A stretch of 12,588 bases of DNA from a virus (lineage: Duplodnaviria; Heunggongvirae; Uroviricota; Caudoviricetes): IMG/VR virus record IMGVR_UViG_2548876944_000014. The stretch is one strand, 5' to 3'. How positions within the stretch are numbered: the stretch's first letter is position 1; each line of letters starts with the position of its first letter. Positions 3-10,915 of the stretch are shown in pieces. A model generated the notes under the pieces. The model was not told the origin of the DNA. It saw only the letters and a program-made list of their open reading frames with translations, and made no database searches. Position numbers and translations under genes: made by a program.

Positions 3-488
3 TCATGCCTGTTTTGCGACCTCATTCACTACGTCATTTTTTACCATCCGGCTGATAATCTGATTACACAAATCGTCAATAATTGACTGCACTCTGTTTA
101 CTGCCATCGGTTTAAGCCCGGCATCACGTGCCAGAATATTGGGGAGTTTTGCCAGTTCCTCGCTTACGATTTCCCCCCATATAGCCATCTCTTTTCGCAC
201 ATCATCGGCGGGTATGAGTTGCGCCGTTTCCTGTTCGAACTTGAGGCGTTCACGTTCGGACTGATACCAGGCCTTACGGTCATGTGGCTCCATTTCTTCC
301 AGTGATGCCGGAACGGGAAGATCAAGAAAACAGGTCAGAATGTCAGTCACCCGATAGAGTTTCAGCTTGTCATGCCCTCCGGCTGGCTGGATGTTTTTCA
401 GCCTTGCCGCCGCAGTCTGACGACATATTCCCGCTATCGCCGCCAGTTGATTAATGTTCAGCATCAGATTTTTCAGTTCTCGATCCAT
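3..488 (-). CDS. Putative terminase small subunit (N-terminal HTH, Nu1-like), 161 aa
   Basis: ORF track 3..575 begins at a TTG; the in-frame ATG at 488..486 is preceded by GGAG at about 5 nt spacing, so that start is preferred. N-terminus LNINQLAAIAGICRQTAAARLKN looks like a helix-turn-helix as in small terminases. Sits directly downstream of the capsid gene. Stop codon at 3..5, so the gene is complete. Confidence 0.5.
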   Translation of the reverse strand: MDRELKNLMLNINQLAAIAGICRQTAAARLKNIQPAGGHDKLKLYRVTDILTCFLDLPVPASLEEMEPHDRKAWYQSERERLKFEQETAQLIPADDVRKEMAIWGEIVSEELAKLPNILARDAGLKPMAVNRVQSIIDDLCNQIISRMVKNDVVNEVAKQA

Positions 489-641
489 ACCCGCTCCAGA
501 ATGTTTTAAACATGCATCTTGCGAACAACTTTCAGAAGAGGTCAAAAAATGCGCTATATGTTGAGCATAAAACAAGCAAAATTAACATACCAAAAATAAA
601 AATACTTAAAATTCAATACAATATGAAGATGATGATGACGA

Positions 642-726
642 ATGAAAATGCAAAAACTAGCCTTTTTCCGCGCCGCTCCCGCCCCGTGGCAGACCACTCC
701 ACCGGGAGGACCCGTAAAAAAGGCGG
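642..726. repeat. 85-bp GC-rich structured element, copy A (84/85 identical to copy B at 3177..3261)
   Basis: Direct comparison of the two stretches: a single T/C difference at position 16. Lies between the capsid stop and the terS start. Contains the inverted arms AGCCTTTTT and AAAAAGGCG around an internal CTCCCG...CGGGAG stem. Confidence 0.9.
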
Positions 727-738
727 CTGTCGCCGCCC
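716..738 (-). terminator. Rho-independent terminator after the protease-capsid gene
   Basis: On the minus strand GGCGGC-GACA-GCCGCC (perfect 6-bp GC stem) is followed by TTTTTT, 7 nt after the capsid stop codon. Overlaps the end of repeat copy A. Confidence 0.6.
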
Positions 739-744
739 TTGTTG

Positions 745-2658
745 TCATGCTCCACTCGATTTCAGTAATCCGCGATAATCGAGGGCCGCGACACCTGCAT
801 CTATGCGCACTTTCCAGGCGACACCATCAACAGTAAAGCCCACCTGCTCCTCAAGATATGGCGTATCCATACCATCAAGATAAGCGACTTCTATTGTGTC
901 CATCCCCTTAGCTGCGGCTACATACCATTCCTTGCTATTGGCCTTATCAAGACGTGGCTCAACAATTACTTCTGCCATATCTTTCACCACGTTAATGATG
1001 CCGGGGTTCTGATTGATAGTGCTCTCATCACCAACCGGAAAGACTGATGACGATGACAAAATGGCGCGACGCGCGGCAGATTCCAGCGCGGCAGGGACCA
1101 GAACAAAAGCAGGGGTAATATTCAGGGAGTCGCCGTTAGCATCCTCCTGGAGGCGCATCCGCTTACGGGCTTCATCAAGCCCCACCATGTCCATATCCTT
1201 CGCAATAAGATTTTTATGATCGGCATGGAATAACGCTTTACCATCCGTAAACTTGCCGTTGCTGGTTAACAGGAGATAAACCAGATTGCCAACTGTTCTG
1301 GCGGCTGCGCGTCCCATCGCCATGGGGATTGTAGTTAACTGGGTCAGGTCATCGTTGATAATGGCCTGACGGGTAACGGAAAAAATATTCCCGTACGTGG
1401 CCAGCGCAATAGGTACACCTTTATCGCTGGTGGTGATGTATTTATATTCCGCACCTTCCGGTACTTTATCCAGCTTTGAAAAACCATTCAGACCAACGCG
1501 CTTTGCTTCATGAAAGTTTGAAAGCGAACCGGTACGCGTCCATTTCTGGAACGTTTCGCCGCTGTCCTGCCAGCCTTTCAGTACAGATTTTTCAGCCCCA
1601 CCAGCCAGAATATGAGAAAAATCACTGCTGCTGTGTGTAAAAGCCGCATTAACAACCTGCGAGCGATTAATAAAACCGCTCACAGTGATACCACGATCAA
1701 CCAGTGATGCCTGGGCCATTTCAAAAAGGCTCATCATCGCGTAAGGGTTGCCTCGTTCAGGGCGTTCATACCCAAGACGGGAATAAAGCCCCTGACGAAT
1801 TGCATCACCTGTTATGTTTCCGTTTCCGGCATAGATATGAGGCGGGGTATTTTTATTGGATGGCGTGGACTCGCGCCCCAGCTCGTTCAACAGCTTTTCA
1901 CGGGCCATTTCCGGTGTACATGATGCATCTTCCAGACACGCCATTTTGATCCCGTCGTAACGACTGCCGAACAGGCTAAACACTTCACTTATTCCATTGA
2001 TGCGCTTCTGTTCATTACCAGCAATATTTGCCGCTCCCTGTGGCGGTGTAATCATTCCTTTAATGGTTTCCGGCATATGTAAAAAATCTCCTGTGCGTTT
2101 CGATTCAATTCGCGCCATTGCTCTGACGGATGGCAACAATTCATCAGCAAAACCGTGCTTAAGGCATTCTTTCCCATCCATCCAGGTTTCATCCTCCAGC
2201 ATGGCGGTAATTTCCTGTGCTGATTTGCCCGTTTTTCTGGCATAAGCAGGGATTAACACGGTTTCCACCTTATCCAGCAAATCAGCATAATCACGCATAT
2301 CGCCAGCATTTCCGCCAGAGATCCCCCACGGTTTATGGATCATCATCATGGCGTTCTCCGGCATCACTACACGATCGCCAGCCATTGCGACCACCGAAGC
2401 CATTGAAGCCGCAACACCATCGATATAAACCGTAATGTCTGCCGGATGATTCCGTAGCAGGTTATAGATGGCGATGCCTTCAAACACATCACCACCTGGT
2501 GAATGGATCCTCAGATTGATATGTGAAACATCGCCAAGGGCTTTCAGGTCTTCCGCGAACTGCTTTGCAGTAACACCGAAGCCGCCAATCTCCTCATAGA
2601 TAGATATATCCGCCGCTCCACGAACATCCGCCGCCTTAATGGTGTACCAGCGATTCAT
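745..2658 (-). CDS. Prohead protease (ClpP-like, peptidase S14) fused to HK97-fold major capsid protein, 637 aa
   Basis: N-terminal ~180 aa has ClpP-like signatures (HSPGGDV, GVAASMASVVAMAGD, MIHKPWG). The C-terminal ~450 aa has the length and C-terminal pattern of HK97-family major capsid proteins. ATG start at 2658..2656 overlaps the TAA of the upstream small ORF (TAATG). Confidence 0.8.
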   Translation of the reverse strand: MNRWYTIKAADVRGAADISIYEEIGGFGVTAKQFAEDLKALGDVSHINLRIHSPGGDVFEGIAIYNLLRNHPADITVYIDGVAASMASVVAMAGDRVVMPENAMMMIHKPWGISGGNAGDMRDYADLLDKVETVLIPAYARKTGKSAQEITAMLEDETWMDGKECLKHGFADELLPSVRAMARIESKRTGDFLHMPETIKGMITPPQGAANIAGNEQKRINGISEVFSLFGSRYDGIKMACLEDASCTPEMAREKLLNELGRESTPSNKNTPPHIYAGNGNITGDAIRQGLYSRLGYERPERGNPYAMMSLFEMAQASLVDRGITVSGFINRSQVVNAAFTHSSSDFSHILAGGAEKSVLKGWQDSGETFQKWTRTGSLSNFHEAKRVGLNGFSKLDKVPEGAEYKYITTSDKGVPIALATYGNIFSVTRQAIINDDLTQLTTIPMAMGRAAARTVGNLVYLLLTSNGKFTDGKALFHADHKNLIAKDMDMVGLDEARKRMRLQEDANGDSLNITPAFVLVPAALESAARRAILSSSSVFPVGDESTINQNPGIINVVKDMAEVIVEPRLDKANSKEWYVAAAKGMDTIEVAYLDGMDTPYLEEQVGFTVDGVAWKVRIDAGVAALDYRGLLKSSGA

Positions 2659-2864
2659 TATTCCCCCACCGATGCAAAACCATTCTGATTAAGCCAGGTG
2701 TTTACGGCATGTCTGACAATCTGCGCCACACCTGGTAATGGTTTGTCAGGATGATGATTTATATGGTCGATCCTGTACTGCTTAAGGCGCATAACGGTCT
2801 GCGCATCCAGATGAACGGAACCACCCCTGATATCGCCCGTGTTCAGGTCATTAATACAACTCAC
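2658..2864 (-). CDS. Hypothetical small protein (68 aa), first gene of the capsid operon
   Basis: GTG start preceded by strong Shine-Dalgarno AAGAGGAAG at about 5 nt. Stop overlaps the capsid start (translational coupling). No recognisable motif. Confidence 0.45.
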   Translation of the reverse strand: MSCINDLNTGDIRGGSVHLDAQTVMRLKQYRIDHINHHPDKPLPGVAQIVRHAVNTWLNQNGFASVGE

Positions 2865-2966
2865 AGTAACTTCCTCTTACTGACTAAACTGTGCACATTA
2901 TTGATCGATAAAAGTGGTAGATAAACATATTTCTATCATAAAAATAGATTAATGAGATTCAGACAC

Positions 2967-2989
2967 AAAAAAGCCGGAGAAAATCCGGC
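2967..2989 (-). terminator. Rho-independent terminator between replication/ori module and capsid operon
   Basis: On the minus strand GCCGGA-TTTTC-TCCGGC (6-bp stem) is followed by TTTTTT. Located about 100 bp upstream of the capsid-operon start. Confidence 0.55.
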
Positions 2990-3176
2990 ATAAATATCCC
3001 GCCATCTGAACACGTTTTGACACAGGCAACTCCACCTGGCAGGTGAAAAACAGATTTATTTATATATTTCAATTAATTGCAAACTGGTCTAATGACAGGG
3101 AGAAAAAAATATTGTACAGGTGAAAACAGAAATAACTTTTAATTATCAATAAATTATCACACATGCTGCCGCCGCC

Positions 3177-3261
3177 ATGAAAATGCAAAAACCAGCCTTT
3201 TTCCGCGCCGCTCCCGCCCCGTGGCAGACCACTCCACCGGGAGGACCCGTAAAAAAGGCGG
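3177..3261. repeat. 85-bp GC-rich structured element, copy B
   Basis: 84/85 identity with 642..726. Lies between the iteron origin and the terminator at 2967..2989. Flanking sequence diverges immediately on both sides. Confidence 0.9.
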
Positions 3262-3402
3262 ATTGCTCCGGCTTCTGTTACTCGTTGCTTAAAACGGTAT
3301 GTTATCCCCGTACGGATCATCATTCCCCGCCTGTTGTTTTGGTGTGCTTCGCTGTCATAGGCTTTATCTCACAGCAGTAAATTAAAATTTTTGCGTTTTA
3401 AC

Positions 3403-3631
3403 CCTTCACCTGTTCACCTTTTGATATTTTCTCTTTTAATTCATAATGTTAAGGGGTGAACAGTTTCACAAAAACTATTCACCAACTGTTCACCACTGTT
3501 CACCCTTGAAGCTCAATAAACAATCAAAAAGGTGAACAGTGAATAGTTTGGTGAACAGTTCATAAATAACTGTTCACCCTATAATATACTGATATAAAAG
3601 ATATTTATGACAGGGTGAACAGTGGTGAACA
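3403..3631. repeat. Replication origin iteron array: nine perfect TGTTCACC / GGTGAACA octamers plus degenerate copies (P4 ori/crr type I iteron type)
   Basis: Perfect octamers at 3411, 3487, 3497, 3571 (forward) and 3455, 3531, 3550, 3614, 3624 (reverse), with AT-rich spacers (e.g. 3580..3610). Immediately downstream of the P4-alpha-like replicase gene. TGTTCACC is the type I iteron bound by P4 alpha protein, recalled from the literature. Confidence 0.75.
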
Positions 3632-3645
3632 GTTATTCCATAAGT

Positions 3646-5463
3646 TTAATTTTTGCTATCGTCATTAGTGACCGATACACATGATGGCATCCAGTCTTCT
3701 GATTCCTCCGTCAGTGTCACGTTTGAACGCAAACCGTGCTTCGTTTTCCGTTTCATATACTCCCTGCCATATTCCGCCATTGCCCCCGGCATATCTTTAC
3801 CGAAGCGCGTCAGTGTTACAGGTTTACCAAACCCATGTGCCCTCATATAAGCCAGATAGGCATGATAGAGATACCTGCGTGGGCTGAATGGCACAATTTC
3901 AGCATTACCCACTAACAGGCCATCACACATTACCGACGCCATGAGATAGCCGCAGAAGTCCACCAGCGAATCCCCCTCTCGCTTTATCGCCAGTGCTTCT
4001 TCAGATTTCTGCTGCTCATATAACAGGCGTCTGGCTTCGTCCTGGTCAGCAAACCGTGTAAGCAGATGGCGAATCACTACCGCCAGCTCACCTTCTATTT
4101 TTTCCGCCAGCATTGGATCGCGTTCGTTCTCCGGTACAACTTCCGAAAAATTGAATATCACCCGACGACGTGAGATCCCCCCGCTGCGGTCACTGAATGA
4201 CATGGCGTTATTGTTAACCGCCAGCACTACTGCCGGAATACGCGTTGAGTAGGGGGCTTTGTGTTTCGGGTCAATTGCCACCTTGTCACCGCCTGTAATG
4301 GCCTTAATCCCTGCCCCATCACCAGCGTAGCGGGTCATATCCGGCATGATAATCAGCGAAAAGCCAACCACTAACGCGCGTTCCCTTGCATCTTCCAGCG
4401 CCTTCATGCTTGCCGATACTGTGTTGGCCTTACCCGCCAGCATGGTGCAAATCTCCGCCATCACGCTTTTACCACTTCCCCCTGGACCTGTTACCTCAAT
4501 GAATAACTGCCAGTCGTACCGGTTCGCCAGCACCATGAATAAGGCAGCCAGTACGCGATCCGCCTTGCGGTCATTCTCAGCCACCGAACGGCGTAACCAC
4601 TTCCAGAAATTCGGCGCATGTGTTGCCAGCGTTTCCCCCTCTGCTGGTGGGCTGAAAGGTAATTCACTGGCAATTAACAACCAGTCGTTTTTGTTATGCT
4701 CCCGAAAATTACCTGTTCTGGTATCAAATACCCCGTTACTGAATCCAATCAGGTTACGGGCTGTATTCCCCATTACAGGCAAACTTAACTTCATGGTATC
4801 GACCGCCGATTTAATGGCGTTCTGCGAATAGCTGATCTCCGCATCAATGAAAATCTGCGCCATAGCACGCTGTAACTCTTTATCCTGAACCGGCTCCCAT
4901 ACAATGCCGTTGTAATGGTGAACAGTGTCAGAGTCGGCATGAATCGCCAGTTCACCGCCATAATGTGCCAGGAGAACTTCGCCGCGTTGACTTGCTCCCA
5001 TCTGGTTAAGCGCCAGTGATGAAGCGTTATCGTCTTTTACCCGCTCTTTTTTCTTTACAGGCAGTTCAACTACCTTTTTCTTTTCCGCCAGCTCTCCCCG
5101 CTCACGTTCCAGATATTCGCGCCAGTTCTCCCGTTTCTGGCTGTGCATTCCTTCAGGATAATAATCAGCATCCCTGACACCTGCCGCTGCCAGTTTCTGC
5201 CCGATGGTATTAACAAGCCCCGGACGCAATAACCCCGCCTGGTAGAGACGCACGCGATAGCGTCCGTCCGGTACGATTTGCAGGTTGTCCAGTTCGGCAA
5301 GTTGTTGCTCTCCAAGCCAGACAGGTGGCACGTTATCGCCAGCCAGTCGCCCGTCCTGTTCCTGCCACTGCTTCGCATGTGCCCACGCATCACTACCCGC
5401 AAAAATGATGACTTCCGTCATTTTGTCACGCGGCTGGTGTTTTAAATTTGGCGCTTTTTTCAT
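3646..5463 (-). CDS. Replication initiator, P4 alpha-like: D5_N domain plus SF3 helicase (Walker A GPGGSGKS) plus C-terminal putative iteron-binding domain, 605 aa
   Basis: Walker A GPGGSGKS, Walker B-like LIIMPD, and a D5_N-like segment (IGFSNGVFDTRTGNF). ATG at 5463 has GGAGAGAG upstream and forms an ATGA overlap with the stop of the upstream ORF; the ORF-track start at 5478 is GTG. Iterons lie directly downstream. Confidence 0.85.
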   Translation of the reverse strand: MKKAPNLKHQPRDKMTEVIIFAGSDAWAHAKQWQEQDGRLAGDNVPPVWLGEQQLAELDNLQIVPDGRYRVRLYQAGLLRPGLVNTIGQKLAAAGVRDADYYPEGMHSQKRENWREYLERERGELAEKKKVVELPVKKKERVKDDNASSLALNQMGASQRGEVLLAHYGGELAIHADSDTVHHYNGIVWEPVQDKELQRAMAQIFIDAEISYSQNAIKSAVDTMKLSLPVMGNTARNLIGFSNGVFDTRTGNFREHNKNDWLLIASELPFSPPAEGETLATHAPNFWKWLRRSVAENDRKADRVLAALFMVLANRYDWQLFIEVTGPGGSGKSVMAEICTMLAGKANTVSASMKALEDARERALVVGFSLIIMPDMTRYAGDGAGIKAITGGDKVAIDPKHKAPYSTRIPAVVLAVNNNAMSFSDRSGGISRRRVIFNFSEVVPENERDPMLAEKIEGELAVVIRHLLTRFADQDEARRLLYEQQKSEEALAIKREGDSLVDFCGYLMASVMCDGLLVGNAEIVPFSPRRYLYHAYLAYMRAHGFGKPVTLTRFGKDMPGAMAEYGREYMKRKTKHGLRSNVTLTEESEDWMPSCVSVTNDDSKN

Positions 5464-5759
5464 TTCTGCTCTCTCCACGCGGCAATCATGTTTTTCAGTT
5501 CCTGTAGTTTTTTATCCACATCCACACGTGACACATGGTTATTTCTGGAAGTCGGGATTTCCCGCCGGAATCTGCAAATAAAGATCTCCACGTTCAGCGA
5601 ACTAAGAAATGAATATCCATCACGGATAAAATAAACACGGTCAAACATCAGTTCTTTTACCGTTACTCTGTTACCGTTCTTATCCAGATAAATAGCGCCG
5701 GGGATAATTTTGTGGTGTGCATAACCGCTGGCAGTCAAGCCAGATAAATATGTTCTCAT
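5460..5759 (-). CDS. Hypothetical protein (99 aa), translationally coupled to replicase
   Basis: ATG start with GGGGA upstream; stop overlaps the replicase start (ATGA). No recognisable motif. Confidence 0.5.
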   Translation of the reverse strand: MRTYLSGLTASGYAHHKIIPGAIYLDKNGNRVTVKELMFDRVYFIRDGYSFLSSLNVEIFICRFRREIPTSRNNHVSRVDVDKKLQELKNMIAAWREQK

Positions 5760-5765
5760 GATTAT

Positions 5766-6086
5766 TTATCCCCGATTTGAATCAGTATTCGCTTTCTTTA
5801 TGGCATTTAATGCATCTGTGGCATTTTCAATGGTGCACCGTAACGAAATATCAAACCGCCCAAGCATTGCCAGTAACAAACCGATATTACCCATATCAAT
5901 GCGCATGGCCTTTTCGTCATAGTCCTCATTTTCTGACGCATGCCACATCAGGCTACCAATTGACGCAATACCCATTGATATATTGTCAGTAGCCCCATCC
6001 GCAGCGGAATAAACCTTTTTAGCAATATCATGCTCACAGTTAAAATGCGGATTAATCAGGTACTGGTAATTTGACATATCAGGCAT
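5766..6086 (-). CDS. Hypothetical acidic protein (106 aa)
   Basis: ATG at 6086..6084 overlaps the stop of the upstream 67-codon ORF by 8 nt. Same strand and operon as the replicase. No recognisable motif. Confidence 0.5.
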   Translation of the reverse strand: MPDMSNYQYLINPHFNCEHDIAKKVYSAADGATDNISMGIASIGSLMWHASENEDYDEKAMRIDMGNIGLLLAMLGRFDISLRCTIENATDALNAIKKANTDSNRG

Positions 6087-6282
6087 GGCACACCCCCTGA
6101 CGAATACGGGCGGCGAATACCATCACGCAGCCAGCCGGAGATTGCTGGCGTGCTTCCTGTTCGCTGGTGGCCTCAATGGTAATCACGCGCGGTTGTGCCG
6201 TGCTCAGGGCGATAAAACGCCAGGCGAATTTATTCAGGTCGTGCGAGTCCCGCCCTTGCGGGTGTGTGGTATGATTTCTCAT
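6079..6282 (-). CDS. Hypothetical small protein (67 aa), first gene of the replication operon
   Basis: This is the C-terminal part of the implausible 306-aa ORF-track entry. The internal ATG at 6282..6280 is preceded by GAGGT at about 7 nt (MRNH...). Overlaps the next gene. Sits just downstream of the palindromic operator region. Confidence 0.4.
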   Translation of the reverse strand: MRNHTTHPQGRDSHDLNKFAWRFIALSTAQPRVITIEATSEQEARQQSPAGCVMVFAARIRQGVCHA

Positions 6283-6378
6283 AGCTACCTCGATACGCTT
6301 TCTATCGTTGGTGGTTAGAAGCCCGGTTAGTGTTAGCGCACTGCCGGGTTTCGTCGTTTCTGCACCTTGCATCAACAA

Positions 6379-6431
6379 GGTGTTAAACACCAATTTAAGC
6401 CTAGGTGTTAAACACGTCAAGTGTTGAACAC
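6379..6431. promoter_or_regulatory. Three palindromic operator-like sites: GGTGTTAAACACC, GGTGTTAAACACG, GTGTTGAACAC
   Basis: Inverted repeats GTGTT/AACAC at 6379..6391, 6404..6416 and 6421..6431, in the roughly 200-bp divergent region between the minus-strand replication operon (start 6282) and the plus-strand RHH gene (start 6482). Confidence 0.5.
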
Positions 6432-6481
6432 TTATTTTTTTTCCTGCATACTGCATTTGTTTTTTGTAAGGGGTACACAAC

Positions 6482-6661
6482 ATGGCGACAAAAGCAGTAA
6501 ACGCAAAATCACAAACAGTTGCGGCAAGGGTTCCGCATGAAGTTATGAACAATGTTGAGGCGGTAAAAATGCCTGGTGAAAGTACAGGGCAGTTTGTAAC
6601 AGCAGCATTAAAGCGAGAAGTTGAATACCGCCAGCGTCGCAAGGCCAAAGAGCAGGAGTAA
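6482..6661 (+). CDS. Ribbon-helix-helix (Arc/CopG-like) DNA-binding protein, 59 aa; candidate repressor
   Basis: Not in the ORF track (below its 60-aa cut-off). ATG preceded by TAAGGGG. Sequence MATKAVNAKSQTVAARVPHEVMNNVEAVKMPGESTGQFVTAALKREVEYRQRRKAKEQE shows beta-strand (VAARVPHEV), helix, Gly turn, helix as in RHH folds. Followed by a second small ORF and a plus-strand terminator. Confidence 0.5.
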   Translation: MATKAVNAKSQTVAARVPHEVMNNVEAVKMPGESTGQFVTAALKREVEYRQRRKAKEQE

Positions 6662-6718
6662 CCATCACCAGCGCCGTGGTGCGGTGAACTATGGCGCACA
6701 GGGTTACAGGTATCTACG

Positions 6719-6898
6719 ATGACTGACAAATCATTAAAGAAATTATCCTCATCCAAGAAAAAACAACGCAAAAATGCGGTAAACGAACATGAACCGGAGA
6801 GATTCGCACCATGTGCGTTTATCCTTGAGAAGTACCTTAAAGAGTATTCTAGGAAAATACGCTCATTGCAGGCATGGCAGCGAATCGAGCCAGACTGA
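6719..6898 (+). CDS. Hypothetical basic small protein (59 aa)
   Basis: Open frame between the RHH gene and the plus-strand terminator. Weak ribosome-binding site; no motif. Supported mainly by the operon context. Confidence 0.25.
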   Translation: MTDKSLKKLSSSKKKQRKNAVNEHEPERFAPCAFILEKYLKEYSRKIRSLQAWQRIEPD

Positions 6899-6962
6899 TA
6901 ACATTGCCCACCAGCCAACAACCTGGTATTCTGGATATGCTCAAGTTTAGTGTTATGCCACT

Positions 6963-6990
6963 GGCGACCGCCCTTGGTCGCCTTTGTTTT
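6963..6990 (+). terminator. Rho-independent terminator for the plus-strand RHH unit
   Basis: GGCGACC-GCCCTT-GGTCGCC (perfect 7-bp stem) followed by TTTGTTTT on the plus strand. Lies between the convergent small-ORF unit and the alpA stop. Confidence 0.6.
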
Positions 6991-7007
6991 ATGTGTCATA
7001 GCCCCCC

Positions 7008-7232
7008 CTACGCTGCCTTACCTGAATTAACGCGGTCACGGCTTTGCACCCAGTCCATAACTTCGGAAAGCAACCAGCCTACAGAACGCCCCCCAAGATT
7101 ACGGCGAGACGGAAAGCCCCCTTTCTTCTCCAGTTCGTAGCGTGTAGTACGGCTGACGCCTGTTAACTTACGACATTCATCCTCACGAATTACGCGATCT
7201 GTTAGTGATTGAAATTGTGTATTTTGATTCAT
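7008..7232 (-). CDS. alpA: AlpA-family (phage Xis/AlpA-type HTH) transcriptional regulator, 74 aa
   Basis: Small HTH protein with the AlpA-like C-terminus (RSVGWLLSEVMDWVQSR). ATG with GAGGGTG Shine-Dalgarno and its own AT-rich upstream region. Typical position next to int in P4-like and PICI elements. Confidence 0.8.
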   Translation of the reverse strand: MNQNTQFQSLTDRVIREDECRKLTGVSRTTRYELEKKGGFPSRRNLGGRSVGWLLSEVMDWVQSRDRVNSGKAA

Positions 7233-7335: not shown

Positions 7336-8190
7336 TTAATTTTCATTAGATAACATTTTTCTTATTTTTTCTAAAGAATCGCTGCGCATTATTTTTTCTA
7401 AGAAGGGTTTTACAGTCTGAGCAATAGCAAAGGTGTCCTTTTCACCATCAGGATACAAAGATACGGCAAGCACCCCTAATGAAATTTTTCTATCTGTAGA
7501 CAACTCCCAAGATAATAAGTCAATTAATGGGATTATCTTATAATCAATAATTTTACGTCGTATGCTCTCCCAACTTCCTGCAATTGGTTTGTCTGGCTCA
7601 ACAATTGAAAGTTCACTACGCCATTTTGGTAATAGTTTTGTAAACGCTTCAATCAACTCATCATCTCTGTTATGTAGTAAGTCAACAGAAACAAGCATAT
7701 TATCTAATGTATCAGAAAGGAGATTCACTGGTTCACGCATCACAGCCCAAAACATCCCATTATCTTCTGATATTAAACTTCCAACCATCTCATTATCTAT
7801 GATGATTGGTTTATCCTTCCAATATCCTCTTTCCGCAGTCAGTTTATTAATCATTGATATATCAAACCTTGTTACAGGTTTAATTCCATCATCATAACTT
7901 AGCTCAATTAACTTCGGCTGCACTTTATGGTCATATTCTTTTTGTTTATCACAAAACCAATCGTCTTCTTTCAGCTCTCCAAATGGATCCCCGTAATTAT
8001 TATGCAACGGGTATTCAGCACCAAACATAAAACCATATTCAGGCATCTCAGAATGTTTCATTGTTAAATCATCTTGTCGCCAATATAATTGGCGAAATAG
8101 ATCTTTATCCGACAAGTTTTCTAGGCAATCATATTTGCCTAAATCAAATGACTTTGGTAAATCTTTTTTACTATTTACTTTTTTCGTCAT
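7336..8190 (-). CDS. Hypothetical protein (284 aa), AT-rich cargo gene between int and alpA; function unknown, candidate accessory/defence gene
   Basis: Long clean ORF with visibly lower GC than its neighbours. ATG overlaps the int stop (ATGA), so it is probably co-transcribed with int. Acidic, no transmembrane segment, no Walker or nuclease motif recognised. Confidence 0.6.
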   Translation of the reverse strand: MTKKVNSKKDLPKSFDLGKYDCLENLSDKDLFRQLYWRQDDLTMKHSEMPEYGFMFGAEYPLHNNYGDPFGELKEDDWFCDKQKEYDHKVQPKLIELSYDDGIKPVTRFDISMINKLTAERGYWKDKPIIIDNEMVGSLISEDNGMFWAVMREPVNLLSDTLDNMLVSVDLLHNRDDELIEAFTKLLPKWRSELSIVEPDKPIAGSWESIRRKIIDYKIIPLIDLLSWELSTDRKISLGVLAVSLYPDGEKDTFAIAQTVKPFLEKIMRSDSLEKIRKMLSNEN

Positions 8191-9407
8191 TGTATCCCTC
8201 TCAATATCACAATATTTTCATTATATCCTGCAATCATATCAAGACGCTCAACCCATAGATTCAGTGCGTCCCGTTTCGCCTGCAAATAGCGTGAATGGTT
8301 ATAGGTTTTTTGCTGACCTGGCATCTGATGCGCTGTGATGTGCTCCACGATATGCGGATCGACACCTAAATCATTCAGCATAGTTGTAAACGTGTGTCGG
8401 AAATCATGCAGCGTCCAGTGTTCCTGCTTAAGCCGCTTATGCGCATTTCGTCCATATTGCGCCACCGTGGTATCTTTTTTCAGTTCGCCGAGTAATAACC
8501 CAGTGTGTGCGTTTTGCTCCACCAGCTTCTGAATGAACGGCAAAATGCCATCAGGAATAGGTCGGAATATTGTTACCTTCGTTTTGCTGTGCTCTTTTGG
8601 CACTGTCCACAACATTTCTTTCAGATCCCATTCTTTGATCTCTGAAAGTCTGATCTCTGCCGTTCTACACCCGAACACAATTAACAAGCGCATTAACGCA
8701 CTGTAATAGGGAGCGAACACATCACCATCAATAGCGCGTAGAATTTCTTTTAGTTCGCTGTTGCTGTGCACTCTCTCGCGGATTTCTGCTCTCTTACCCA
8801 CATCAGTAACGATCAAATCGTCCAGGGCGTTGCTAAACGCGTAGCGCCGCCTGCGGCAAAACTTTAGCGCCTGTTTGCATGTCTGCATGACATGGCCCGC
8901 TGCTACTGGTGCTTTTTTTCGTACGCGGTCAAAACATGCGATCCACTGCCTTGTATCACACTTATCAAGGGGAATTGCCCCGATATGGCAAATGATGTGC
9001 TTATCCATACGCTGCACCAGCTTTATGTAATCTTTGCGGTTATCCTTCGCGTATTCCTCCAGCCAGTAGTTAATCGCTTCCTTCACCGTAACGGGTTTTA
9101 GTGCTTCTTGTACTGTGGCGCACAACTCATACCGAGGGTTTTTACCCTCAGCCAGCCATGCCCGGCACTGTGTTCGCTTTTCCCTTGCAGATTTCAGCGA
9201 CAATTCCGGGTAAGCCCCCAGCTTTAACCGCTCTGCGGCAACCTCACGGCCTCCCGTTCGGTACCGGAAATACCAGGTTAATTTGCCTCCCTTTGAGTGT
9301 TTAATCTCCAGCCCGCCCCCGTCGGAGTAAAAACGCTCTTTTTCTGCCTGGACAGCCACCAATTTTTTTAACGTTGAATCGCTCAGTTTGTTTAGTGCTT
9401 TTCCCAC
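8187..9407 (-). CDS. int: Tyrosine recombinase / integrase, P4 family (N-terminal DUF4102 arm-binding domain), 406 aa
   Basis: N-terminal DGGGL...WYFRYR...LGAYPELSLKSAREKR signature of P4-type integrases. Catalytic HDFRHTF box and C-terminal Tyr region. GTG start with AGAGGA Shine-Dalgarno. Lies at the element edge facing the chromosome. Confidence 0.9.
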   Translation of the reverse strand: MGKALNKLSDSTLKKLVAVQAEKERFYSDGGGLEIKHSKGGKLTWYFRYRTGGREVAAERLKLGAYPELSLKSAREKRTQCRAWLAEGKNPRYELCATVQEALKPVTVKEAINYWLEEYAKDNRKDYIKLVQRMDKHIICHIGAIPLDKCDTRQWIACFDRVRKKAPVAAGHVMQTCKQALKFCRRRRYAFSNALDDLIVTDVGKRAEIRERVHSNSELKEILRAIDGDVFAPYYSALMRLLIVFGCRTAEIRLSEIKEWDLKEMLWTVPKEHSKTKVTIFRPIPDGILPFIQKLVEQNAHTGLLLGELKKDTTVAQYGRNAHKRLKQEHWTLHDFRHTFTTMLNDLGVDPHIVEHITAHQMPGQQKTYNHSRYLQAKRDALNLWVERLDMIAGYNENIVILRGIQ

Positions 9408-9442: not shown

Positions 9443-9466
9443 AACTGACCACACAACTGACCACAC
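9443..9466. repeat. Perfect tandem duplication of the 12-mer AACTGACCACAC within a C/A-rich tract upstream of int
   Basis: Read directly from the sequence (9443..9454 and 9455..9466). The surrounding roughly 150 bp is strongly C/A-biased on the plus strand. Confidence 0.7.
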
Positions 9467-9736
9467 ATTTCGCTGAAGCTCGGCAAACAACAACGAACAG
9501 CAACAAACAAGAAAGCCAATTAAATCATTGTATATCAAACACATACACAAACAATCACGAACACCCCCGAACTACAAAAAACACTAAATGAGAAAATACG
9601 GGTATTTCTCAGCCTTCACGCAGAAGGGCACCCCGAGTCGTTTGGTTGCGATGATAAATCGCAGAGGAGGATGGTAATGTCCAGCGCACGCGTTGTAAAC
9701 GAGGAAAAACGGCAGTTTTACAATCGCGTTAATAAA

Positions 9737-10009
9737 TTATTTGATATATGAATCCAGCACCTTCAGAACGACATCCAGATCTTCTTCACGTTTTAGCTCA
9801 TCCCCCTGGTGAACGATGTGTTCCGTCAGATGACCTTTAATCACTTCCCGCATCAGACCGTTTACCGCGCCACGGATAGCAGCAATCTGTTGTAAAACTG
9901 CAGCGCATTCGTGCGGCTCGTCGAGCATTTTCTTGAGCGCCACGACCTGGCCCTGAATCTTACTGGCACGCGCTTTCAGTTTCTGTTTATCACGGATTGT
10001 ATGAGACAT
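9737..10009 (-). CDS. rcnR: Ni(II)/Co(II)-responsive transcriptional repressor RcnR (CsoR/RcnR family), 90 aa
   Basis: Protein [11 protein letters not shown]...HEC... matches RcnR as I recall it. Divergent from rcnA, with TACT-G6-N-AGTA operators in the intergenic region. Confidence 0.9.
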
Positions 10010-10129: not shown

Positions 10130-10915
10130 ATGACCGAATTTACAACTCTTCTTCAGCAAGGAAACGCCTGGTTCTTCATCCCCAGCGCCATCTTACTTGG
10201 TGCGCTTCATGGCCTGGAACCAGGGCACTCAAAAACGATGATGGCGGCGTTTATCATCGCCATCAAAGGCACCATTAAACAAGCGGTGATGCTCGGACTG
10301 GCAGCAACTATTTCGCATACCGCAGTGGTCTGGTTAATTGCCTTTGGCGGGATGGTGATCAGCAAGCGCTTTACTGCTCAATCAGCAGAACCGTGGCTCC
10401 AGCTGATTTCCGCAGTGATCATTATTGGCACCGCGTTCTGGATGTTCTGGCGTACCTGGCGCGGCGAACGCAACTGGCTGGAGAATATGCACGAGTATGA
10501 TCATGAACATCATCACCATCACGAACATGGCGAGTATCAGGATGCCCATGCACGAGCCCATGCCAATGACATTAAACGACGCTTTGATGGTAGAGAGGTC
10601 ACCAACTGGCAAATTTTGTTATTTGGCTTAACCGGTGGTCTTATCCCCTGTCCGGCAGCAATTACCGTGCTGTTGATATGCATTCAGTTGAAAGCCCTGA
10701 CACTGGGCGCAACACTGGTCGTCAGTTTCAGCATTGGCCTGGCGTTAACGCTTATCACCGTAGGCGTTGGCGCAGCAATCAGCGTTCAGCAGGTCGCAAA
10801 ACGCTGGAGCGGATTTAACACTCTCGCTAAACGCGCCCCCTATTTTTCCAGTCTGTTGATTGGCTTAGTCGGTGTGTATATGGGCGTACATGGCTTCATG
10901 GGCATAATGCGATAA
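10130..10915 (+). CDS. rcnA: Nickel/cobalt efflux transporter RcnA, 261 aa
   Basis: Multi-pass membrane protein with a central His-rich loop (HEYDHEHHHHHEHGEYQDAHARAH). Conserved position next to rcnR. Confidence 0.9.
   Translation: MTEFTTLLQQGNAWFFIPSAILLGALHGLEPGHSKTMMAAFIIAIKGTIKQAVMLGLAATISHTAVVWLIAFGGMVISKRFTAQSAEPWLQLISAVIIIGTAFWMFWRTWRGERNWLENMHEYDHEHHHHHEHGEYQDAHARAHANDIKRRFDGREVTNWQILLFGLTGGLIPCPAAITVLLICIQLKALTLGATLVVSFSIGLALTLITVGVGAAISVQQVAKRWSGFNTLAKRAPYFSSLLIGLVGVYMGVHGFMGIMR

Follow-up and report, generated by a model that had tools for sequence, protein, structure and literature searches.

A sequence present twice in the window (the whole 12,588-nt stretch of viral DNA that was analysed) is very probably the conserved core of a lambda-type cos packaging site, a double-stranded DNA element carried by a 10,245-bp satellite of the PICI type. 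A sequence-only reading of the window had offered a packaging-related site as one of three roles for the repeat and had also raised a protein-binding DNA site. Both suggestions were upheld.

Self-comparison of the window placed the two copies, A and B, in direct orientation 2,535 bp apart, with 89 of 94 nt identical (642-735 and 3177-3270), a degree of identity that within 12.6 kb far exceeds chance. The 85-bp element first described (642-726 and 3177-3261; 84/85 identical) was borne out at those positions. Its sole mismatch is T658 versus C3193, and the remaining four mismatches of the longer repeat lie at 727-732 versus 3262-3267. Near-perfect identity is a peculiarity of this island, as copy B of three sister islands has five further differences from copy A to the left of the nick. 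The positions given earlier with respect to capsid terminator, terS and origin were also correct. Copy A has the stop codon (745) of a ClpP-capsid fusion gene on one side and the DUF1441/terS gene on the other, and copy B lies between an iteron origin (about 3430-3650) and the operon composed of a 68-aa gene and the capsid gene.

On the plus strand the two copies share an opening ATG and its frame (ORFs 642..836 and 3177..3380), and thus the earlier statement that the reading frames differ holds for the minus strand only. A coding role for the shared ORFs was considered and rejected. The repeat is noncoding, as had been proposed, because these ORFs diverge where the repeat ends and because their counterpart in phage cdtI has a stop as its fourth codon (ATG GAA ATG TAA). 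The earlier description followed the plus strand, but the relevant strand is the minus strand, that of the island's genes.

Read on the minus strand each copy has the order cosQ (GGGTCCT), 22 nt, ACG/GGGCGGGAGCGG/CGCGG (the slashes bound the predicted overhang) and a spacer of ~30 nt, I2-like, that extends to +43. Cleavage in this island would fall at the positions listed here.

642..735, minus strand: copy A, the cos core predicted to be recognised by TerL (cosQ, cosN and I2-like spacer) together with the capsid-gene terminator's 3' half and T-run; repeat family D1, collinear with the lambda, cdtI and mEp460 cos junctions
3177..3270, minus strand: copy B, the same cosQ, cosN and I2-like core, from alignments and from 163 E. 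coli genomes that have it in this satellite context
707..713, minus strand: copy A's cosQ, GGGTCCT, which 22 nt separate from the predicted nick downstream (23 nt in lambda)
3242..3248, minus strand: cosQ GGGTCCT of copy B, 22 nt upstream of the predicted nick
673..684, minus strand: cosN of copy A, the predicted 12-nt cohesive end; predicted top-strand nick 685/684, with ACG/ and /CGCGG flanks as in lambda
3208..3219, minus strand: cosN of copy B, predicted 12-nt cohesive end; predicted nick 3220/3219; base 1 of the cdtI record (GGGCGGGAGCGT...) aligns to 3219
716..737, minus strand: intrinsic terminator of the capsid gene (GGCGGCGACAGCCGCC plus TTTTTT; hairpin 722-737), abutting cosQ of copy A
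3251..3272, minus strand: terminator-like hairpin and T-run upstream of copy B (GCCGGAGCAATCCGCC TTTTTT), found in the sequence

The repeat reaches past cosQ because the capsid-gene terminator abuts cosQ of copy A. The hairpin at 3251..3272 has a perfect GCCGGA/TCCGGC stem in the sister islands and one altered stem base here.

The real ends of lambda align with this arrangement block by block (TTTACGGGTCCT...ACG/GGGCGG....../CGCGG). Lambda and the island share GGGTCCT, the interval of 22-23 nt, the ACG/12 nt/CGCGG motif and the overhang's left half (GGGCGG), and in both the site lies upstream of terS and belongs to a gpA-type terminase. They differ at overhang positions 7-12 (GAGCGG here versus CGACCT), in the spacer that follows cosN (CGCGGAAAAAGGCTAG versus CGCGGGTTTTCGCTAT), in cosB, which in the island is unrelated to lambda R3-I1-R2-R1, and in TerS, which is a DUF1441 protein rather than Nu1 and has no significant similarity to it. 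The cores of cdtI, Tritos, HannyBb and mEp460 are nearly identical to both island copies. The cdtI record opens with GGGCGGGAGCGTCGCGG and closes with ...GCCACG, which is exactly the predicted nick. The match to phage Tritos has those record coordinates too, and the mEp460_4F5 assembly begins 5 nt ahead of the predicted nick. Where deposited phage records start may in part be a matter of convention. The cdtI TerL has GpA_ATPase and GpA_nuclease domains.

Conservation was measured on an alignment of 34 homologous sites. A46, C47, G48, G50, G51 and C61-G65 are invariant across the 34, the cosQ block is nearly invariant or is replaced by GGTACTCC, and overhang positions 1-6 (GGGCGG) and the CG flanking the nick are conserved, with positions 7-12 free to vary. 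Conservation of cosQ, of the nick-flanking CG and of the left half of the overhang together with a variable right half is the published pattern of lambda-like cos sites (PMC4669245). Literature searches with the overhang sequence GGGCGGGAGCG matched unrelated papers only.

The genomic position is likewise conserved. The site lies upstream of terS and a gpA-type terL in 21 prophage loci and in cdtI, mEp460 and vB_EcoS-606R10, and in lambdoid phage records it falls between the lysis genes and terS. Each of the 21 prophage loci, which encode a gpA-type TerL and a portal, has one site, with the nick ~130-185 nt upstream of the DUF1441 terS where measured. The 16-kb 'phage' vB_EcoS-606R10 was considered as a possible packaged satellite and set aside, as it is a partial genome of an ordinary lambdoid phage.

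Judged by its genes the host element is a PICI satellite, having int, alpA, a primase gene, an iteron ori, the ClpP-capsid fusion and terS. Both gene set and layout are those of Gram-negative PICIs (reference layout from PMC10085698), with ~10 kb between att repeats and without terL, portal, tail or lysis genes. The partner of the att repeat listed below lies 799 nt before the window start, and hence the island is 10,245 bp.

3..488, minus strand: predicted small terminase gene of the satellite (Pfam DUF1441; PHROG 141 'terminase small subunit', E 6.7e-57; PGAP start 488, longest ORF start 575)
745..2864, minus strand: operon lying between the two cos copies and made up of a 68-aa gene (2658-2864) and the ClpP-protease/major-capsid fusion (745-2658)
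9446..9472, plus strand: att direct repeat TGACCACACAACTGACCACACATTTCG at the island's integrase end, from the source genome (locus L009, NZ_CP150989)

The TerS function of the DUF1441 protein is predicted from position and family annotation. Its identity is 65% to mEp460 TerS, whose N-terminal DNA-binding region is similar, versus only 48% over 75 aa to cdtI TerS. Comparison with solved structures gave no relative, comparison with RppA and lambda Nu1 gave no similarity and a literature search gave three incidental mentions of DUF1441. At this end of the island terS is followed by a 93-aa gene. No TerL or portal homologue was found in the island, unlike the capsid-forming PICIs (cf-PICIs), which encode their own terL, portal, head-tail connectors and HNH protein. 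A circular 10,790-bp 'plasmid' assembly is a sister island and has both copies.

The likeness of the two copies ends at +44 because cosB, the segment that TerS would read, begins there. The same point is that at which mEp460 and cdtI diverge, just before the position equivalent to R3, which in lambda is bp 48-65 (PMC9026076). The flanks had been called unrelated and indeed cosB-A and cosB-B are 57% identical in a global alignment, about background; they fall into two cosB classes.

489..641, minus strand: cosB-A, which flanks copy A between +44 and the start of terS; mEp460-type, 65% identical, with TCGTCATCATCATC at the R3-equivalent position
3030..3176, minus strand: cosB-B, the flank of copy B from +44; cdtI-type, 94.4% identical over 144 nt, ending in a remnant of the cdtI terS start (GTGTCAAAACG)
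3117..3126, minus strand: first TTTTCACCTG direct repeat of cosB-B (+94), a candidate TerS-binding (R-like) site at the same position in cdtI
3040..3049, minus strand: second TTTTCACCTG direct repeat of cosB-B (+171), a candidate TerS-binding (R-like) site at the same position in cdtI
2967..2989, minus strand: intrinsic terminator (GCCGGATTTTCTCCGGC plus TTTTTT) directly downstream of cosB-B and before the capsid operon, from a terminator search and the sequence

Copy A and its flank are collinear with the mEp460 cos region and terS, and cosB-A opens with (CAT)n, as in other satellites. Copy B and its flank are collinear with the entire cdtI cos region at ~94% identity, and cosB-B ends ~10 nt into a deleted terS. 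Phages of the cdtI and mEp460 types have one cos per genome followed by terS-terL-portal, whereas at copy B of the satellite terS has been lost and a terminator and then the capsid operon follow. These classes suggest that the satellite TerS pairs with copy A and a TerS of the cdtI class with copy B.

Upon helper induction the island would excise and replicate. By homology with lambda a TerL of the gpA type would recognise the core and make staggered nicks leaving 12-nt 5' ends. The satellite would bring the capsid/protease fusion and its TerS, but neither TerL nor portal nor tail. With helper TerL, the TerS of the satellite would start packaging at copy A, and the TerS and TerL of a cdtI-class helper would do so at copy B, in the direction of terS, att, int and ori. 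In lambda, initiation is cosB-specific; for termination cosQ, cosN and I2 are required, and the specificity of cosB plays no part (PMC4669245). As termination needs only cosQ-cosN-I2, it would be possible at either copy. The most likely working is that either site starts packaging, each with a different class of TerS, and that either terminates it.

Extension of this scheme to a dual-key system, in which copy A would be opened by the mEp460-class TerS of the satellite and copy B by the TerS of a cdtI-class helper, such that two helper lineages are parasitised and alternative lengths packaged, is possible but doubtful. As both helper classes share TerL, cosQ and cosN, one 10-kb satellite could parasitise two lineages. 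Since termination ignores cosB, the products could be unit-length molecules or 7.7-kb molecules lacking the capsid operon, and exchange of cos halves becomes possible; the A-type patch in copy B of this island might be a trace of such an exchange. The 7.7-kb molecule that packaging from A to B would give looks costly and counts against use of two sites.

A competing account that we consider quite plausible, although we lean against it, accepts the cos core but holds that only copy A matters; copy B would have been left behind by recombination with a cdtI-like prophage and would have no function or do mild harm. Copy B is absent from the sister island L092, one of five E. coli sister islands examined, and from seven satellites of other genera, which have one site ~60-75 nt past the capsid stop (the copy A position) and gave no second cos by self-BLAST or regex search; hence copy B is dispensable. 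It is, however, retained in ~163 of ~193 E. coli islands of this satellite family. Identity to E. coli phage DNA is 94% for the flank of copy B but only ~56% between the island capsid gene and its phage homologues, which points to a recent capture, and the terS start remnant is still attached to that flank. Yet the captured piece fits the limits of a functional cos almost exactly, from cosQ to ~10 nt into terS, and both R-like repeats are intact.

The PICI EcCICFT073 bears on both sides of this question. It has two functional cos sites in which cosQ and cosN are common and cosB differs (PMC6092414, PMC6739421; Fillol-Salom 2018, 2019). Both sites supported plasmid transduction (PMC6092414), which speaks against a copy B without function, but transfer rose upon deletion of cos2 (PMC6092414), and therefore a second cos need not benefit a satellite. 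The two islands share a backbone (int 66%, AlpA 66%, primase 49% and the terminal 93-aa protein 74% identical) as well as paired sites of common cosQ/cosN and different cosB, one of them directly upstream of a packaging-specificity gene. They differ in that the EcCICFT073 sites are inverted around rppA (locus L093; cos1 at 9957, plus strand, and cos2 at 10710, minus strand), whereas those of the present island are direct, 2,535 bp apart and placed around the capsid operon. The overhang of EcCICFT073 is lambda-type and its Rpp works with the TerS of the helper, whereas the present island encodes a DUF1441 TerS of full length, lacks an Rpp homologue and has one phage-type cosB.

Other systems offer partial parallels. 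P4 and SaPIbov5/SaPIbov4 also carry the cos of their helper and are packaged by the helper terminase, and two putative cos sites have been reported for SaPIbov4 (PMC6092414; bioRxiv 10.1101/2022.09.08.507074), but their terminase and cos families are unrelated (P2-type and HNH-dependent staphylococcal cos, respectively). The lambda cos-duplication constructs and dilysogen helper-packaging substrates of the Feiss laboratory likewise have two direct cos sites in one molecule, but are laboratory-made with the sites about a genome length apart, whereas in the island two such sites occur naturally, separated by 2.5 kb one way and 7.7 kb the other. Neither cos sites nor satellites with two of them are new, so the finding, although real, is an ordinary one that extends the EcCICFT073 work. 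For this satellite family it predicts exact genome ends and usable helper classes, and a natural direct repeat having one phage-type and one satellite-type cosB is a ready system for study of how the terminases of cos phages select their start and stop points.

The remaining readings deny that the repeat is a cos site. We regard as very unlikely a duplicated promoter/operator that would place the capsid operon and terS under a late-gene activator or repressor, an idea that draws on the location of both copies upstream of morphogenesis genes on the coding strand. No sigma-70-like promoter was detected at either copy, the strong terminator at 2967-2989 stands between copy B and the capsid operon, in satellites of other genera that operon has no copy upstream and lambda shares the core, where it is the genome end. 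The antisense transcript proposed to arise from a TACAAT hexamer fared no better, there being no promoter-like site at TACAAT.

Still less probable is that the repeat functions as a structured cis-acting or antisense RNA. Single sequences of the 85-mer do fold a little better than shuffled ones (z -1.6 to -3.1). Across both strands, with and without flanks, the z-scores were modest and inconsistent (-0.6 to -3.6), partly owing to the adjacent terminator hairpin. The complementary arms and the CTCCCG/CGGGAG stem described earlier are present in the sequence, but the conserved element does not include the outer arms: the arm with the T-run is a piece of the upstream terminators and is absent from the phage homologues, mEp460 lacking it and cdtI having only TTTT. 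In the 34-site alignment just 57% of cells pair in the proposed stems, covariation is at the level of shuffles (212/500), slid controls behave alike on covariation and RNAalifold gave -3.5 kcal/mol with 0 compensatory pairs; hence the suggested check for compensatory changes across homologues was negative. No Rfam match covers the element, a permissive E-value scan of the whole window having placed only a spurious eukaryotic lncRNA alignment over it. Given no covariation over 34 sites and no Rfam match, the element is not a structured RNA, and its conserved sequence blocks coincide with lambda cosQ and cosN. A conserved inverted repeat at cosQ (GGTACTCC...GGGGTACC) was also tried and rejected, as 71% of cells pair versus 72% in shuffles.

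A generic dispersed repeat of the REP, ERIC or MITE kind has almost nothing to commend it: the element is common, as had been feared (2547 of 5426 E. coli genomes, in up to 8 places each), but the median is 1 place per genome, terminal inverted repeats and target duplications are lacking and the inspected places, far from being unrelated contexts, were always the cos region of a phage or satellite beside a DUF1441 small-terminase gene. The cos assignment gives a definite function to a sequence found in about half of complete E. coli genomes, where the listed places are unannotated or lie under a hypothetical ORF; it would be the terminase cutting site of cdtI/mEp460/Gifsy-like lambdoid phages and their satellites.

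The repeat search of the window returned one family of 94 nt, with 95% identity between its two direct copies at 642-735 (copy A) and 3177-3270 (copy B). The sequence-only reading had claimed a duplicated 85-mer with one mismatch and unrelated flanks, and this was present as described: T658/C3193 is the sole mismatch within those 85 nt, four extra mismatches lie at 727-732/3262-3267, and the flanks past the repeat limits are 57% identical between copies by global alignment, which is about background. The 94-mer gave BLAST matches in 2547 of 5426 complete E. coli genomes (median one place per genome) and in lambdoid phages, where it lay at the extreme record ends or just upstream of the small terminase gene, terS. 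When the minus strand was set against the true lambda ends the blocks corresponded one for one, the lambda junction being ...TTTACGGGTCCTTTCCGGTGATCCGACAGGTTACG / GGGCGGCGACCT CGCGGGTTTTCGC... and the repeat junction ...TTTACGGGTCCTCCCGGTGGAGTGGTCTGCCACG GGGCGGGAGCGG CGCGGAAAAAGGC... Hence, the repeat contains cosQ, a 12-nt cohesive end and an I2-like spacer:

707-713 (copy A) and 3242-3248 (copy B), minus strand: cosQ, GGGTCCT, from the lambda alignment
673-684 (copy A) and 3208-3219 (copy B), minus strand: predicted 12-nt cohesive-end sequence, with conserved CG dinucleotides on both sides
about 30 nt, in both copies: spacer equivalent to lambda I2

The deposited genome of phage cdtI starts with GGGCGGGAGCGTCGCGG and finishes with ...GCCACG, exactly the predicted nick, and phage Tritos matched at the same record coordinates. 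The large terminases (TerL) of cdtI/Tritos/mEp460-type phages have gpA ATPase and nuclease domains, as in lambda terminase. Judged by these alignments, the repeat is the core of a lambda-type cos, a kind of site that is well understood. An assembly of an mEp460 derivative (mEp460_4F5, LR595868.1, bases 1-45) opens 5 nt ahead of the predicted nick and, compared with mEp460, is short of 3 nt in the overhang region; this is probably an artefact of assembly at a physical end.

The sequence-only reading had also offered a folded RNA, and the minimum-free-energy structure of the window copy does include its complementary arms and CTCCCG/CGGGAG stem. We aligned 34 homologous sites with the nick as anchor. 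Invariant or nearly invariant columns were cosQ, CCACG/GGGCGG and CGCGG..CGGCT.GTTTT, and overhang positions 7-12 varied freely across the 34 sites, a pattern also described for lambda-like phages (PMC4669245). On this alignment only 57% of the structure's cells were paired, and 212 of 500 shuffles equalled or exceeded its covariation score. Folding with a search for compensatory changes, the check which that reading had proposed, gave -3.5 kcal/mol, six invariant pairs and no compensatory change (RNAalifold, 34 sites), and Rfam had no match across the repeat. On the cosQ side, the outer arm consists of a transcription terminator's T-run (terminator GGCGGCGACAGCCGCC-TTTTTT in copy A and GCCGGAGCAATCCGGC-TTTTTT in copy B of the sister islands); this T-run is missing in mEp460, and cdtI shows just TTTT at that place. 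Given the lack of conserved pairing, covariation or an Rfam match, and an arm that is a terminator T-run, the repeat is a duplex DNA site and not a folded RNA. The operator option was rejected, and that of a packaging-related site proved correct. A short inverted repeat suspected at cosQ was without covariation.

The window is 100% identical to a locus of E. coli CUVET16-819. In that strain an island of 10,245 bp lies between thiM and rcnR, with 27-bp direct repeats at its ends, and it lacks genes for terL, portal, tail and lysis. The gene layout is canonical for a proteobacterial PICI, a phage satellite island (PMC10085698), and for a sister island there is a circular assembly of 10,790 bp. 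The genes neighbouring both copies are on the minus strand throughout:

8187-9407, minus strand: integrase
7336-8190, minus strand: DUF6387 protein
7008-7232, minus strand: AlpA
3646-5478, minus strand: D5-type primase
about 3430-3650: iteron block, unit GGTGAACAGT, between primase and copy B
2864-745, minus strand: 68-aa gene and ClpP-protease/major-capsid fusion, between copy B and copy A
488-3, minus strand: DUF1441 protein, after copy A

DUF1441 is assigned to PHROG 141, 'terminase small subunit'. The iterons are dense, both direct and inverted (families D3, D11, D20; I1, I2, I7, I12, I17), and sit directly downstream of the primase gene; the array is presumed to be the replication origin, as had been assumed from sequence. 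A weak covariance-model match to the SymR antitoxin (6283-6355, plus strand; 32.8 bits and E 0.005, short of the gathering score, 61) occupies the gap from an Icd-like gene to the divergent YlcI/YnfO gene, and may mark a small regulatory RNA in the control region of the island. An open 306-aa reading frame at 6079-6999 (minus strand) had no Pfam match; PGAP calls there only the 68-aa Icd-like gene (6079-6282) and the opposite-strand YlcI/YnfO gene (6482-6661). Cargo at the two cos positions differs among sister islands: a HEPN-domain gene takes the place of copy B in L092 (NZ_CP195467, 5033-5746), an island without copy B, and an inserted 'tail assembly protein' gene separates the capsid gene from copy A in the circular island L010 (NZ_CP148328, 8571-9173).

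Counted from the first overhang base, copies A and B are similar to +43 and diverge from +44. The cos regions of mEp460 and cdtI part from each other precisely here, at a point which falls just ahead of bp 48-65, the place of lambda R3 and of a proposed PICI R3-equivalent (PMC9026076). The copy A flank is homologous to mEp460 cosB (65%), and the TerS encoded by the adjoining gene shares 65% identity with mEp460 TerS, the N-terminal DNA-binding regions also being similar. Over 144 nt the copy B flank matches cdtI cosB at 94.4% identity; it retains two direct repeats TTTTCACCTG at +94 and +171, and stops about 10 nt inside the former cdtI terS start, with a terminator next. The cdtI and satellite TerS proteins are only distant relatives (48% over 75 aa). 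A (CAT)n/(CAC)n run (TCGTCATCATCATC, GACACCACCACCAC and similar) occupies the R3-equivalent position of copy A (628-641) and about +44 to +64 in mEp460, loci L011, L012, L048 and L088, and cos1 of EcCICFT073, a published Gram-negative PICI. The run is shared by copy A, mEp460, other-genus satellites and cos1, and is missing from the flank of cdtI type. It could represent a common TerS/Rpp recognition motif.

We sorted 80 loci of other species encoding ClpP-capsid fusion relatives by marker genes and cos profile. The 21 prophage loci with TerL and portal had one cos each, upstream of their own DUF1441 terS (nick about 130-185 nt upstream, where measured). Seven satellites, from Trabulsiella, Yersinia, Buttiauxella, Phytobacter, Kluyvera, Moellerella and Rahnella, also had one cos each, with the nick about 60-75 nt past the capsid stop, the copy A position; their capsid proteins are 71-79% identical to that of the window, and neither self-BLAST nor regex found a second copy in them. 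Both copies were present in E. coli islands L003, L009 (the window's source locus), L010 and L091, and copy A alone in L092. A capsid gene 3' end joined to copy A occurred in 193 E. coli genomes, and copy B in satellite context in 163. The cdtI-type cos and cosB adjoined a DUF1441 gene in about 770 further E. coli genomes, and thus potential cdtI-class helpers are common.

Duplication of cos in a PICI is a published phenomenon. Both EcCICFT073 cos sites are reported to permit plasmid transduction, and transfer to require cos1, recognised via Rpp-TerS (PMC6092414, PMC6739421). In CFT073, cos1 is on the gene strand directly upstream of rppA and cos2 on the opposite strand between rppA and the terminal 93-aa gene; within the CFT073 locus (NC_004431 1377599-1397742) we located the inverted sites flanking rppA at 9957 (plus) and about 10526-10745 (minus). 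The two islands share a backbone (integrase 66%, AlpA 66%, primase 49% and 93-aa protein 74% identity), but differ in packaging gene (Rpp in CFT073, full-length DUF1441 TerS here), in overhang sequence and in geometry, inverted around rpp versus direct around the capsid operon. What is new is the direct arrangement, together with a satellite-type cosB on one copy and a phage-type cosB on the other, of which no description was found in the searchable literature, whose coverage is incomplete.

Initiation in lambda depends on cosN and a cognate cosB. For termination cosQ, cosN and I2 are required, with cosB specificity immaterial (PMC4669245). The duplicated segment corresponds to this termination module, cosQ-cosN-I2, common to two phage lineages with different TerS. 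Given these rules and the shared module, we infer a two-site scheme: initiation would use satellite TerS plus helper TerL at copy A and could use the terminase of a cdtI-class helper itself at copy B, packaging would run towards terS, att and int, and termination could occur at either copy. The packaging-direction intervals are 7,710 bp (A to B) and 2,535 bp (B to A). The chief alternative holds copy B to be a functionless or mildly harmful fragment of recent capture. Its absence outside E. coli and in L092 favours this, as does the increased transfer reported upon deletion of EcCICFT073 cos2 (PMC6092414). Against it, the captured piece coincides closely with a complete cos, and about 84% of the E. 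coli islands in this satellite family keep copy B.

Between terminator and nick, copy B departs from copy A at five positions in L003, L010 and L091 (CCGGC..ATGGG..GTGTAGTGACC versus CCGCC..ACGGG..GTGGAGTGGTC; regions compared were window 3220-3262, L003 16579-16626, L010 5920-5967 and L091 about 4240-4285). The window's copy B is A-type at all five and keeps the B-type G at +27 and B-type flanks. The 84/85 identity would be best explained by a short gene-conversion patch in this copy. The A-type patch alters one stem base of the hairpin upstream of copy B (TCCGGC to TCCGCC), with one pair lost. The 12th cohesive-end base is polymorphic, G or T (L091 4228-4239 versus L091 1694-1705; L092 2694-2705). 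As the two L091 copies differ at this base, a molecule packaged from copy to copy would have a one-base end mismatch; such mismatches are tolerated in lambda and N15 experiments.
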